Source: Escherichia coli (GTDB lineage Bacteria; Pseudomonadota; Gammaproteobacteria; Enterobacterales; Enterobacteriaceae). Taken from it: DNA of 64,000 nt. This document shows, in pieces, positions 2,105 to 42,169 of this stretch. The notes below the pieces were generated by a model. It saw only the letters and a list, made by a program, of their open reading frames with translations. It had not been told where the DNA came from and made no database searches. The stretch lies in assembly GCF_041248615.1 (NCBI RefSeq), contig NZ_CP158426.1. One strand, 5' to 3'. The translations under genes and the position numbers were made by a program. The stretch's first letter is position 1, and each line of letters begins with the position of its first letter.

Positions 2105-2470
2105 TCATTCGCCGCGATAGATGCAACCTGCGGTGCAGGTTTCTTTCACCATAACCGCACTTAACAGCGGAACAACCGGTTTAACCTGATCCCAAATCCA
2201 TTTTGCTAAAACCTCGCTGGTCGGGTTTTCCAGGCCAGGAATATCATTGAGATAATAGTGATCGAGGCGATCATAGGTTGGTTTAAATGCCGCTTTCAGT
2301 TCAGCGAAATCGATAATCCAGCCCGTATGCGGATCGACTTCCCCGGTAATTTCCAGTCGCACCATAAAGGAATGCCCGTGCAGGCGACCACATTTATGCC
2401 CTTCCGGGACGTGTGGTAAGCGGTGAGCGGCTTCGAAGGTGAAATCTTTAAATAACGTGGTGGACATCAT
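2105..2470 (-). CDS. queD: 6-carboxy-5,6,7,8-tetrahydropterin synthase
   Basis: ORF 2105..2554; QueD/PTPS-like sequence [35 protein letters not shown]; start trimmed to MMSTT at 2470 (121 aa). Confidence 0.85.
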
Positions 2471-2785
2471 AATTTCTCTACAGGACGATAAAACCGCCGT
2501 AGAGTACCGGAAAGGCTGTTTTTTCGCATTATCTAAAACGACTTTGTTGCGCAAAATCGCTGATTTATCTTATTGATGGGCAATATTCATTTGTTTTTCA
2601 TTGGGTTGGTTAATCTATTTTGTTGTTAAAGACTATTGCTAAAACAGGTTAGTCGATTTGGTTATTAGTTATCGCTATCCCGTCTTTAATCCACACCGTT
2701 CACCCCGTTAACCTTATCTTCTCTTCTGTTTTATGGGCGCTGACAGGGCGCAGAAACAGCTTTGCTTACTGGAACATAACGACGC

Positions 2786-4585
2786 ATGACGACACAGGTC
2801 CCACCTTCCGCGTTGCTTCCGTTGAACCCGGAGCAACTGGCACGCCTTCAGGCGGCCACGACCGATTTAACTCCCACCCAGCTTGCTTGGGTTTCTGGCT
2901 ATTTCTGGGGCGTGCTCAACCAGCAGCCTTCTGCGCTTGCAGCGACGCCAGCGCCCGCCGCAGAAATGCCGGGTATAACTATTATCTCCGCTTCGCAAAC
3001 CGGCAATGCGCGCCGGGTTGCTGAAGCATTACGCGATGATTTATTGGCGGCAAAACTGAACGTTAAGCTGGTGAACGCGGGCGACTATAAATTCAAACAA
3101 ATCGCCAGCGAAAAACTGCTTATCGTGGTGACGTCAACGCAAGGGGAAGGGGAACCGCCGGAAGAAGCCGTCGCGCTGCATAAGTTCCTGTTCTCCAAAA
3201 AAGCGCCGAAGCTGGAAAACACCGCGTTTGCCGTGTTTAGCCTCGGCGATAGTTCTTATGAATTTTTCTGCCAGTCCGGGAAAGATTTTGACAGTAAGCT
3301 GGCGGAACTGGGCGGTGAACGCCTGCTCGACCGTGTCGATGCCGACGTTGAATACCAGGCTGCTGCCATCGAGTGGCGCGCCCGCGTGGTTGATATTCTG
3401 AAGTCCCGTGCGCCTGTCGCGGCACCTTCGCAATCCGTCGCTACTGGCGCGGTAAATGAAATTCACACCAGCCCGTACAGCAAAGACGCGCCGCTGGTGG
3501 CGAGCCTCTCTGTTAACCAGAAAATTACCGGGCGTAACTCTGAAAAAGACGTTCGCCATATCGAAATTGACTTAGGTGACTCGGGCCTGCGTTACCAGCC
3601 GGGTGACGCGCTGGGCGTCTGGTATCAGAACGATCCGGCACTGGTGAAAGAACTTGTCGAACTGCTGTGGCTGAAAGGTGATGAACCTGTCACCGTCGAG
3701 GGCAAAACGTTGCCTCTGAACGAAGCGCTACAGTGGCACTTCGAACTGACCGTCAACACCGCCAACATTGTTGAGAACTATGCCACGCTTACCCGCAGCG
3801 AAACGCTGCTGCCGCTGGTGGGCGATAAAGCGAAGTTACAGCATTACGCCGCGACCACGCCGATTGTCGACATGGTGCGTTTCTCTCCGGCGCAACTGGA
3901 TGCCGAAGCGCTGATTAATCTGCTGCGCCCGCTGACCCCGCGCCTGTATTCCATCGCCTCCTCACAGGCGGAAGTCGAGAACGAAGTACACGTCACCGTT
4001 GGCGTGGTGCGTTACGACGTGGAAGGCCGCGCCCGTGCCGGTGGTGCCTCCAGCTTCCTCGCGGACCGCGTGGAAGAAGAGGGCGAAGTCCGCGTATTTA
4101 TCGAACATAACGACAACTTCCGCCTGCCAGCCAACCCAGAAACCCCGGTGATTATGATTGGCCCAGGCACCGGCATCGCGCCGTTCCGAGCCTTTATGCA
4201 GCAGCGCGCCGCTGACGAAGCGCCGGGTAAAAACTGGCTGTTCTTTGGCAATCCGCACTTTACGGAAGATTTCCTCTACCAGGTGGAATGGCAGCGCTAC
4301 GTCAAAGAGGGCGTGCTGACGCGTATCGATCTTGCCTGGTCGCGCGATCAAAAAGAAAAAATTTACGTACAAGACAAACTGCGCGAACAGGGCGCGGAGC
4401 TGTGGCGCTGGATCAATGACGGTGCCCACATTTATGTCTGCGGCGACGCTAATCGCATGGCGAAAGACGTTGAGCAGGCACTTCTGGAAGTGATTGCCGA
4501 ATTTGGTGGCATGGACACCGAAGCGGCGGATGAATTTTTAAGTGAGCTGCGCGTAGAGCGCCGTTATCAGCGAGATGTCTACTAA
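2786..4585 (+). CDS. cysJ: sulfite reductase [NADPH] flavoprotein alpha subunit
   Basis: 599 aa; flavodoxin-like N-terminal region then FAD/NADPH-binding C-terminal region; matches my recollection of E. coli CysJ; stop overlaps cysI start. Confidence 0.95.
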
Positions 4586-31898: not shown

Positions 31899-34460
31899 TT
31901 ACACCAGACTCTTCAAGCGATAAATCCATTCCAGCGCCTGACGCGGGGTGAGTGAATCCGGGTCCAGGTTTTCCAGTGCCTCGACCGCAGGCGACGTTTC
32001 TTCTGGCACTGACAGCAAAGACATTTGCGTACCATCCACTTGCGTAGCGGCGGCGTTCGGCGAAATGCTTTCCAGCTCACGCAGTTTTTGCCGTGCGCGC
32101 TTAATAACCTCTTTTGGCACGCCCGCCAGAGCAGCAACCGCCAGGCCGTAGCTTTTGCTCGCCGCGCCATCCTGCACGCTGTGCATAAAGGCAATGGTGT
32201 CGCCGTGCTCCAGTGCATCAAGATGCACGTTGGCGACGCCTTCCATTTTCTCCGGTAACTGGGTTAGCTCGAAATAGTGGGTGGCAAACAACGTCAACGC
32301 TTTAATCTTATTCGCCAGATTTTCCGCGCACGCCCACGCCAGCGACAGACCATCGTAAGTGGAGGTTCCGCGCCCAATCTCATCCATCAGCACCAGACTG
32401 TACTCGGTGGCGTTATGTAAAATATTGGCGGTTTCGGTCATCTCCACCATAAAGGTTGAACGCCCGGATGCCAGATCATCCGCTGCCCCTACGCGGGTAA
32501 AGATGCGATCGATAGGTCCAATCTCGACTTTTTGTGCCGGTACATAGCTGCCGATGTAGGCCATCAGCGCAATCAGTGCGGTCTGGCGCATATAGGTACT
32601 TTTACCGCCCATATTCGGACCGGTAATGATCAACATGCGACGCTGCGGCGACAGGTTCAGCGGGTTGGCGATAAATGGCTCGTTCAGTACCTGTTCAACC
32701 ACCGGATGGCGGCCTTCGGTGATGCGAATACCCGGTTTATCAATGAAGGTCGGGCAGGTGTAGTTCAGGGTATAGGCCCGCTCCGCCAGGTTAACCAGCA
32801 CATCAAGTTCTGCCAGTGCGCTTGCGCTCTGTTGCAACGCTTCCAGATGCGGCAACAGCAGGTCGAACAGCTCTTCATAAAGCTGTTTTTCCAGTGCCAG
32901 TGCTTTGCCTTTTGAGGTGAGAACTTTATCTTCGTACTCTTTTAGCTCTGGAATAATGTAGCGTTCGGCGTTTTTCAGCGTCTGGCGGCGCATGTAGTTA
33001 ATCGGTGCCAGATGGCTTTGTCCACGGCTGATCTGAATGTAATAACCATGCACCGCGTTAAATCCGACTTTCAGCGTGTCCAGGCCGGTACGTTCACGCT
33101 CGCGGACTTCCAGACGCTCCAGATAATCGGTCGCGCCGTCAGCCAGCGCGCGCCACTCATCCAGCTCTTCGTTATAGCCCGATGCGATAACACCACCGTC
33201 GCGCACCAGTACCGGCGGTGTGTCGATAATGGCCCGCTCCAGCAGATCGCGCAGTTCGGCAAACTCACCCATCTTCTCACGCAGCGCCTGTACCGGTGCA
33301 CTATTGACAGTTTCTAACTGCGCGCGCAGCTCCGGCAGTTGCTGGAAAGCGTGACGCATACGGGCCAGATCGCGTGGGCGAGCAGTTCGTAAAGCCAGAC
33401 GCGCCAGAATACGTTCCAGGTCGCCGACCTGACGCAGTACCGGCTGCAGCTCGGCGGTGAAATCCTGCAATGCGCCAATAGTTTGCTGGCGCTCAAGCAA
33501 GACGCGGGTATCGCGCACTGGCATATGCAGCCAGCGTTTCAGCATACGGCTGCCCATCGGCGTGACGGTGCAGTCGAGCACAGAAGCCAGCGTATTTTCC
33601 GCACCACCCGCCAGGTTCTGGGTGATTTCCAGATTACGACGCGTCGCGGCATCCATAATGATGCTGTCCTGCTCACGTTCCATGGTGATGGAACGAATAT
33701 GCGGCAGAGTCGTACGTTGGGTATCTTTCGCATACTGCAACAGACAACCGGCAGCACAAAGTCCGCGCGGCGCGTTCTCGACGCCAAAACCGACCAGATC
33801 GCGGGTGCCAAATTGCAGATTCAACTGCTGGCGCGCGGTGTCGATTTCAAACTCCCACAGCGGGCGACGGCGCAGGCCGCGACGGCCTTCAATTAACGAC
33901 ATTTCAGCAAAATCTTCTGCATACAGCAGTTCCGCAGGATTAGTGCGTTGCAGTTCTGCCGCCATCGTTTCCCGGTCAGCCGGTTCGCTCAGGCGAAAAC
34001 GACCGGAGCTGATATCCAGCGTCGCGTAGCCGAAACCTTTGCTGTCCTGCCAGATAGCCGCCAGCAGGTTGTCCTGACGCTCCTGCAACAGGGCTTCATC
34101 GCTGATGGTGCCTGGCGTAACGATACGCACAACTTTGCGCTCAACCGGACCTTTGCTGGTCGCCGGATCGCCAATTTGTTCGCAGATGGCAACGGACTCG
34201 CCCTGATTCACCAGTTTGGCGAGGTAGTTTTCCACCGCATGGTAGGGAATCCCCGCCATCGGGATCGGCTCTCCCGCCGAAGCACCGCGTTTGGTCAGTG
34301 AAATATCCAGCAGTTGCGATGCGCGTTTTGCGTCGTCATAAAACAGTTCATAAAAATCACCCATCCGGTAAAACAGCAGGATCTCGGGATGCTGGGCTTT
34401 CAGCTTGAGATATTGCTGCATCATGGGCGTATGGGCATCGAAATTTTCTATTGCACTCAT
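31899..34460 (-). CDS. mutS: DNA mismatch repair protein MutS
   Basis: 853 aa; Walker [10 protein letters not shown]; full-length. Confidence 0.97.
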
Positions 34461-34706
34461 GGGGTTATGTCCGGTTCCCTGATATTAAATGGGGTGTGAT
34501 GGTTTTTATTTTCGTTGTAATCACATAAGGCGCACATGATACCGGAGTTAATCATTTCAGGGGAAGAAGCGAACGGCGAGTTCTTGATGGTGATTCCGGG
34601 AAAGATGCTGTTTTGCAGCTTTTGCGTGATGATTATGAAGCAAGTACGCAAAATTGCGTCGGTTGAATAAACCTCCTCCTTCAGAGCCATAGTCCCCTTT
34701 CAAATT

Positions 34707-34729
34707 AAGTTGTAATATAAATACACCTT
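34707..34729 (+). promoter_or_regulatory. candidate NsrR operator upstream of ygbA
   Basis: AAGTTGTAATATAAATACACCTT, an imperfect 11-1-11 inverted repeat resembling the NsrR consensus as I recall it, 18 nt upstream of the ygbA ATG. Confidence 0.4.
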
Positions 34730-34746
34730 AAGAGTATGGAGGCAGC

Positions 34747-35091
34747 ATGTCCGGCAAGCGTATCTCTCGTGAAAAACTGACGATTAAAAAAATGATCGAT
34801 CTTTATCAAGCGAAATGCCCGCAGGCGTCAGCGGAGCCGGAGCATTACGACGCGCTGTTTGCCTACGCGCAAAAGCGGCTGGATAAATGTGTGTTCGGCG
34901 AAGAGAAACCAGCCTGTAAGCAGTGTCCGGTGCACTGTTACCAGCCTGCAAAGCGTGAAGAGATGAAACAGATTATGCGTTGGGCCGGGCCGAGAATGCT
35001 GTGGCGTCATCCGATCTTAACCGTGCGTCATCTCATCGATGACAAGCGTCCGGTGCCGGAGTTGCCAGAAAAATATCGTCCAAAGAAATAA
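34747..35091 (+). CDS. ygbA: nitrous oxide-stimulated promoter family protein
   Basis: 114 aa; cysteine pattern CPQ...CKQCPVHCYQ. Confidence 0.85.
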   Translation: MSGKRISREKLTIKKMIDLYQAKCPQASAEPEHYDALFAYAQKRLDKCVFGEEKPACKQCPVHCYQPAKREEMKQIMRWAGPRMLWRHPILTVRHLIDDKRPVPELPEKYRPKK

Positions 35092-35129: not shown

Positions 35130-35558
35130 TTACGCTTTGGTGGCAATCAGGATGGCTGATGCTTTGATCAATGCAATAACGCGCGAGCCAGTGGTGAGTT
35201 TCATTTCATCCTGACTTTCATTTGTTACCACTGCCACAATTTCAAAACCCGCATCCGTTTTGATATGGACAGTGGCGTTCACTGCGCCTTCGGTGATTGT
35301 CGACACGCTGCCAGCAAACTGGTTGCGAGCAGAGAATTTCAGTCCACAGTCTTCCGTTGCCAGCGTTACCCACGGGGCTTTAATCAGGGCAATCGCTTCT
35401 TTCCCTTTCGCCAGACCCAGCGCTTGCTGGCTGCTGTGAGTCACAATTGCCACCAGCTTTGCACCACCTGCCAGCGTCAGTTCTACTTCGTCATTCACCG
35501 CGCCCATTGCTACTGCGCTAACTGTTCCGGTTAATTGATTTCTTGCTGAAACTGCCAT
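35130..35558 (-). CDS. molybdopterin/molybdate-binding protein, tandem Mop (TOBE) domains
   Basis: ORF 35130..35597; start placed at MAVSARNQLTGTV (35558) with AGGAGG RBS; two roughly 70-aa repeats (SARNQLTGTVSAV... / SARNQFAGSVSTI...). Confidence 0.8.
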   Translation of the reverse strand: MAVSARNQLTGTVSAVAMGAVNDEVELTLAGGAKLVAIVTHSSQQALGLAKGKEAIALIKAPWVTLATEDCGLKFSARNQFAGSVSTITEGAVNATVHIKTDAGFEIVAVVTNESQDEMKLTTGSRVIALIKASAILIATKA

Positions 35559-35602
35559 ACTGCCTCCTTTCATTGAATGTTGATCGAGTATAACCACATC
35601 TG

Positions 35603-42045: not shown

Positions 42046-42169
42046 GCTGAGGCTTTGCCCGTTTTGCAGGCGTTACGCCTGTTTGGGGATGGGCGTGTCG
42101 ATGAGTGTCGAAAATGACATTTCATCGGCATGTTTTCGTCAAAAATGACAATCACCTGAGGAATGCCTG

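Follow-up and report, generated by a model that had tools for sequence, protein, structure and literature searches.

NsrR is an Rrf2-family repressor that carries an Fe-S cluster. One of the genes that it controls in both Escherichia coli and Salmonella is ygbA (PMC5320621, PMC2884951, PMC1274295). As related in PMC5320621, ygbA is known as an NsrR-regulated gene from the reporter fusions of Bodenmiller and Spiro (2006), and its promoter was found to be bound by NsrR in K-12 in the ChIP-chip study of Partridge (2009). In Salmonella, inactivation of nsrR raised the level of ygbA mRNA 31.8-fold (PMC2884951). The ygbA site was not detected when NsrR binding was mapped by ChIP-seq in strain CFT073, which the authors of that work deem a probable false negative; they give the site as AAGGTGCATTTATATTACAACTT, on the strand opposite to the one considered here (PMC5320621, Table 4).

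Regulation of the neighbouring gene, mutS, has also been described. Its transcription in K-12 starts 74 nt upstream of the ATG codon, and the resulting leader is bound by Hfq at an (AAN)3 motif, ARN1, located at positions -50 to -42, and pairs with the small RNA ArcZ at positions -26 to -15 (PMC5580658). The chromosomal interval between fhlA and mutS is a hotspot of island insertion, the SPI-1 site in Salmonella, and in some Escherichia it bears a gene named "modE" at the position between ygbA and fhlA (PMC7232297).

We have analyzed the mutS-ygbA spacer of an E. coli strain in its window, that is, the whole stretch of 64,000 nucleotides under study. The two genes are divergent, with mutS at 31899-34460 on the minus strand and ygbA at 34747-35091 on the plus strand, and the spacer between them comprises 286 bp (34461-34746). 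The product of ygbA, which matches the Pfam family YgbA_NO (E = 4e-41), has 114 amino acids in the window and 117 in K-12. A match to the spacer was found in 5,418 of 5,426 complete E. coli genomes, with 100% identity in strain 06-00048. We are highly confident that the spacer consists of two already described regulatory segments joined by unconstrained DNA (Table 1), and that the small open reading frame (ORF) lying in it is open by chance and is no gene.

Table 1. Features of the mutS-ygbA spacer, in window coordinates, with the number of positions variable among 12 Escherichia sequences and Fisher tests against the spacer middle.
Feature	Positions	Strand	Basis	Variable positions	Fisher p vs middle
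mutS 5' UTR, 74 nt, start site at 34534	34461..34534	-	PMC5580658 and motif offsets	10/74	3e-6
Predicted mutS core promoter block, the 36 bp preceding the mutS start site	34535..34570	-	adjoins published start site; low variation	1/36	3e-7
44-codon ATG ORF, containing the 27-codon ORF 34587-34670; judged non-coding	34536..34670	+	PGAP annotation		
Fast-evolving junction DNA between mutS-linked and ygbA-linked segments (spacer middle)	34571..34706		variation, alignment, folding	61/136 (45%)	reference
NsrR operator of ygbA, 11-1-11 imperfect palindrome	34707..34729		matrix, published site, conservation	4/23	0.02
Candidate ygbA -10 hexamer TAATAT, inside the operator	34713..34718	+	conservation		
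ygbA Shine-Dalgarno sequence GGAGG, separated by 4 nt from the ATG at 34747	34738..34742	+	direct sequence reading		

The first-pass annotation of this DNA had recorded an 11-1-11 inverted repeat overlapping the expected ygbA promoter and had read it as an NsrR operator. The repeat, AAGTTGTAATA-T-AAATACACCTT, is indeed present at its 23 positions, with 8 of 11 arm positions complementary. As a bare palindrome it does not rise above chance, since 96 of the 63,978 11-1-11 windows in the 64-kb window reach at least 8/11. A generic inverted-repeat finder reported only a weak 13-nt pair, at 34604/34648; it misses the operator because the arms share no exact 6-nt seed. The identification comes from a symmetrised NsrR matrix, constructed from 21 published NsrR sites (PMC5320621, Table 4) with ygbA left out. 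By this matrix the repeat ranks first among all 63,978 positions of the window, and its score of 21.0 bits, which falls within the range of the training sites (13.3-32.2 bits), was reached in none of 20 shuffled 64-kb windows. Moreover, when the CFT073 ygbA site is reverse-complemented, the repeat differs from it by a single nucleotide, a G to A change at 34723. Its sequence identifies it as the NsrR operator already published for ygbA, with binding and regulation by NsrR taken from the literature, and the proposal made from the letters alone has thus been borne out. An FNR or IscR site was also considered and was rejected, as neither TTGAT-N4-ATCAA nor an IscR type-1 motif could be seen by eye.

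The operator shares its 11-1-11 architecture, its AAG...CTT arm ends and its promoter-proximal location with the published NsrR operators of E. coli, namely those of ytfE (AAGATGCATTTAAAATGCATCTT), hcp, hmp and ygbA of K-12 and CFT073. Its arms, with their 8 of 11 complementary positions, are less symmetric than those of ytfE, and the left arm has TAATAT where the NsrR consensus has CATTT-N, a departure that we attribute to an embedded -10 hexamer. The second-best match to the matrix in the window, AAATGACATTTCATCGGCATGTT at 42112-42134, is identical to a CFT073 site found by NsrR ChIP-seq upstream of hycB (PMC5320621, Tables 2 and 4) and was itself a member of the training set.

Conservation of the site was followed through 80 loci, each from a different species and each encoding a YgbA homologue, ranging from Escherichia to Hafnia. 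An operator-type site of at least 13.3 bits precedes ygbA in 72 of these loci, and in 75 the site ends 15-22 nt before the ygbA ATG. In 78 orthologous sites, positions A1, A2, G6, T7, A8, A11, T12, A15, T16, C18, A19, T22 and T23 are invariant or nearly so, and most of them form symmetric pairs, as would be expected of a dimeric repressor; the position corresponding to 34723 is A in 11 of the 78. The gene mutS is found within 1.5 kb upstream of ygbA in just 28 of the 80 loci. Four of these belong to Escherichia, with mutS-ygbA spacers of 283-286 bp; in 22, from Enterobacter, Lelliottia, Leclercia and their relatives, the spacer measures 508-533 bp, and in two from Trabulsiella about 1,250 bp. 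The remaining loci have another neighbour, in keeping with the published view of the fhlA/mutS interval as a hotspot (PMC7232297). Outside Escherichia, the homology to the window detected by blastn begins at 34702-34706, the very edge of the operator. The site is therefore kept upstream of ygbA although the upstream neighbours differ and the flanking DNA is unrelated. As a separate observation, the 508-533-bp spacers of Enterobacter, Lelliottia and Leclercia (about 2470-3000 in loci L030, L032, L034 and L035) can be aligned with that of E. coli only at the mutS Shine-Dalgarno region and at the NsrR site.

Since only 17 nt separate the end of the operator from the ygbA start codon, both the -10 hexamer and the transcription start site would be expected inside it, and repression would proceed by occlusion. 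The conserved T7 A8 n n A11 T12, which does not follow the NsrR consensus half-site, fits a -10 hexamer, and this conservation makes TAATAT the likely -10 hexamer of ygbA. According to the proposed mechanism, NsrR bound over this hexamer would block RNA polymerase at ygbA, and NO, by nitrosylating its cluster, would release the repressor and de-repress the gene. A scan of 34300-34900 for consensus promoters turned up nothing resembling a sigma-70 site on either strand; as the known mutS promoter escaped it too, it says nothing about transcription of the small ORF.

At the opposite end of the spacer, both published landmarks of the mutS leader were found at exactly their published offsets: the Hfq motif ARN1, AAUAAAAAC, lies at 34502-34510 (-50 to -42), and the ArcZ pairing site, AAUAUCAGGGAA, at 34475-34486 (-26 to -15). 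No difference from K-12 DH1 was seen over spacer positions 1-129, and in comparison with the K-12 leader described by Chen and Gottesman (2017; PMC5580658) both the 74-nt UTR and the promoter block are identical. On this basis, 34461-34534 is the known Hfq/ArcZ-regulated leader of mutS, on the assumption that the regulation described in K-12 also operates in this strain, where Hfq (at ARN1) and ArcZ would repress mutS translation through it. The adjoining block, 34535-34570, is predicted, in its function and extent alike, to be the mutS core promoter. Apart from the operator and the small ORF, the spacer had been called unexplained by the first-pass annotation; this does not hold for its 110 mutS-proximal base pairs, which comprise the characterised 74-nt leader and the promoter.

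Between the two regulatory segments the picture is different. The middle of the spacer is the reference against which the flanking features show reduced variation (Table 1), and it varies at or above the rate seen, for the same genomes, at third codon positions in ygbA (37/99). We consider 34571-34706, from its variation and alignments, to be fast-evolving junction DNA at the fhlA/mutS island hotspot. In comparison with the published description of that hotspot (PMC7232297), the chromosomal junction is the same, ygbA moves jointly with its operator, and the DNA that separates ygbA from mutS changes from genus to genus. The hotspot of this E. coli contains nothing but ygbA and a gene with a TOBE domain, and some 136 bp of junction DNA are left. 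This latter gene, located between ygbA and fhlA at 35130-35597 on the minus strand, encodes a 155-amino-acid protein with a TOBE domain of the molybdate-binding type (Pfam PF03459, E = 1e-34), and is absent in K-12 DH1, where ygbA abuts fhlA.

Several genomes illustrate how the junction has been remodelled. In Escherichia sp. E1V33, homology to the window starts only at 34617, and it is such segment-wise homology, along with the distribution of variable positions, that leads us to divide the spacer into segments linked to mutS and to ygbA, with junction DNA between them. In that genome (locus L005, 1-2870), mutS is replaced by another AT-rich island, with a LysR-family regulator, upstream of ygbA. 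In E. coli A2, isolated from platypus (locus L084, 2236-4104), an IS3 element is located 133 bp upstream of ygbA, beside a truncated truD; homology to the window spacer resumes 104 bp before the ygbA ATG, and the mutS-proximal part has no match elsewhere in the genome. The block extending from surE through rpoS to mutS thus appears to be deleted in this strain. In E. coli HB37 (locus L089, 1-300), mutS is unannotated and its frame breaks after codon 14; an insertion may have caused this, and HB37 is possibly a natural mutator. A difference is also seen between the window and K-12 DH1, for past spacer position 129 the two sequences differ at 21 of the last 157 bp (13%). Such a pattern of divergence points to a recombination breakpoint within the spacer, and on the ygbA-proximal side the allele of K-12 is similar to that of Escherichia sp. 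MOD1-EC7003.

A separate problem is the small ORF. The first-pass annotation had listed it as 27 codons at 34587-34670; the translation was exactly as quoted there, but these codons are only the C-terminal part of a longer ATG ORF of 44 amino acids, MIPELIISGEEANGEFLMVIPGKMLFCSFCVMIMKQVRKIASVE. No Shine-Dalgarno sequence precedes 34587, and TAAGG is found before the ATG at 34536, with a gap of 5 nt. PGAP labels the 44-codon ORF a "hypothetical protein", with the accession WP_000611936.1 in this strain and WP_000611932.1 in DH1, and, in an even sample of 30 E. coli genomes, annotates it in about 24; both accessions denote the same ORF as 34536-34670, an ab initio database call. A search of 5.8 billion proteins returned 61 matches to the ORF, of 25-72 amino acids, and all those that bear an organism name come from Escherichia or Shigella; no Pfam domain was found among the 61. 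The hydrophobic and cysteine-containing character of the product stems from a single run of about 11 residues, with the core MLFCSFCVMIM. Mentions of mutS and ygbA are absent from the main texts of some ribosome-profiling papers on small ORFs, which counts neither for nor against the ORF.

Could the 44-codon ORF, or its 27-codon part, nevertheless encode a young hydrophobic microprotein, specific to Escherichia, transcribed divergently from within the leader and promoter region of mutS and evolving too fast to show purifying selection? The ATG with its Shine-Dalgarno sequence, the PGAP call in most E. coli genomes and the hydrophobic core would all agree with this possibility, as would the frame, which runs for at least 43 codons with no stop in each of the 12 Escherichia sequences in which mutS adjoins ygbA. 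The last observation was rejected as evidence of coding, since in a placement simulation the probability that no new stop codon would arise was 0.20. Open frames are also easily obtained in DNA of this composition: when the spacer was shuffled with its dinucleotides preserved, an ATG ORF of at least 27 codons appeared in 73% of cases, and one of at least 44 codons in 27%. Against coding stands, above all, the distribution of substitutions. The variable sites of the ORF in the 12 Escherichia sequences are spread evenly over the three codon positions (15:13:15; p = 0.91 for uniformity), and the counts in the same genomes are 2:2:55 for the first 100 codons of mutS and 7:4:37 for ygbA. The frame is also unstable, as a 1-bp deletion, seen in E. 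albertii as well as several E. coli strains, shifts it and gives an unrelated C-terminus, and the stop codon moves, so that the products would have 43, 44, 51, 58 or 59 amino acids, the 59-residue versions ending inside the NsrR operator. Escherichia sp. E1V33 has neither the start codon nor the first 27 codons, and the ORF is missing outside the genus. The only codons that are conserved, 1-11, coincide with the mutS promoter block. The ATG coincides with the start and -10 region of mutS, and the N-terminus looks conserved because these 11 codons overlap that near-invariant block; by all indications, it is the mutS promoter read on the opposite strand. Furthermore, the hydrophobic stretch is too short for a typical membrane helix, and no plus-strand promoter was found by the consensus scan, which is the scan that also missed the mutS promoter. 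We consider a rapidly evolving microprotein very unlikely, and give still less credence to a recently born, Escherichia-restricted gene of 44-59 codons that would be transcribed and translated head-to-head with mutS promoter activity; were this true, mismatch repair would be under one more layer of control. Instead, the small ORF is probably a spurious gene call, a frame open by chance that extends from the mutS promoter into the junction DNA, its translation being unsupported rather than excluded. The suspicion that it is not real, voiced when it was originally listed, is strengthened by the lack of codon-position bias, by the unstable frame and stop codon and by the restriction to one genus, and the codon-level conservation across Escherichia that had been suggested as a check turned out to be absent.

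Similar reasoning applies to the DNA surrounding the ORF, where a regulatory RNA, or a site for a second regulator of ygbA or mutS, might be hidden in 34571-34706. The -35 region of ygbA is poor, which makes an activator conceivable, and a block reading CCTTC..G....ATAGT, just upstream of the operator, is common to Escherichia, Citrobacter and Salmonella. There is also a weak terminator-like hairpin on the plus strand at 34607-34619, GCTGTTTTGCAGC followed by TTTTG, with a stem of 5 bp; it lies within the small ORF, where the sequence is highly variable, and probably reflects chance. On the other side, 45% of the middle varies within the genus, at least as much as synonymous sites do, folding of its RNA is no better than that of shuffled sequences on either strand (z = -0.57 and -0.50), an Rfam scan of the spacer at E <= 1 gave no match, and outside Escherichia nothing upstream of the operator aligns with it. 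Hidden regulation of this kind therefore has a very low probability in our estimate. Lower still is that of the operator being an AT-rich -10 region that is palindromic by accident, with ygbA under the control of another regulator. This could be argued from the 96 palindromes of 8/11 in the window, and from the missing ygbA peak in the CFT073 ChIP-seq data, but against it stand the invariant, symmetrically placed positions that lie outside any -10 hexamer in the 78 orthologous sites (A1 A2 G6 ... C18 A19 T22 T23). The site is also the best match to the NsrR matrix within 64 kb, and control by NsrR is backed by published genetic and ChIP-chip evidence; we thus regard an accidental palindrome as extremely unlikely, and retain the NsrR operator of ygbA and the leader and promoter of mutS, joined by unconstrained DNA, as the account of this spacer.

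Both the operator and the mutS leader belong to textbook-level knowledge of E. coli, so that nothing at this spacer is new in kind, and beyond annotation hygiene the significance of these results is small. Their practical value is that a call found in thousands of E. coli genomes, WP_000611936.1 with its relatives, can be flagged as likely spurious. A modest addition is provided by the footprint across genera, in which the operator, together with its apparent embedded -10 hexamer, stays with ygbA however the SPI-1/fhlA-mutS hotspot has been rearranged.
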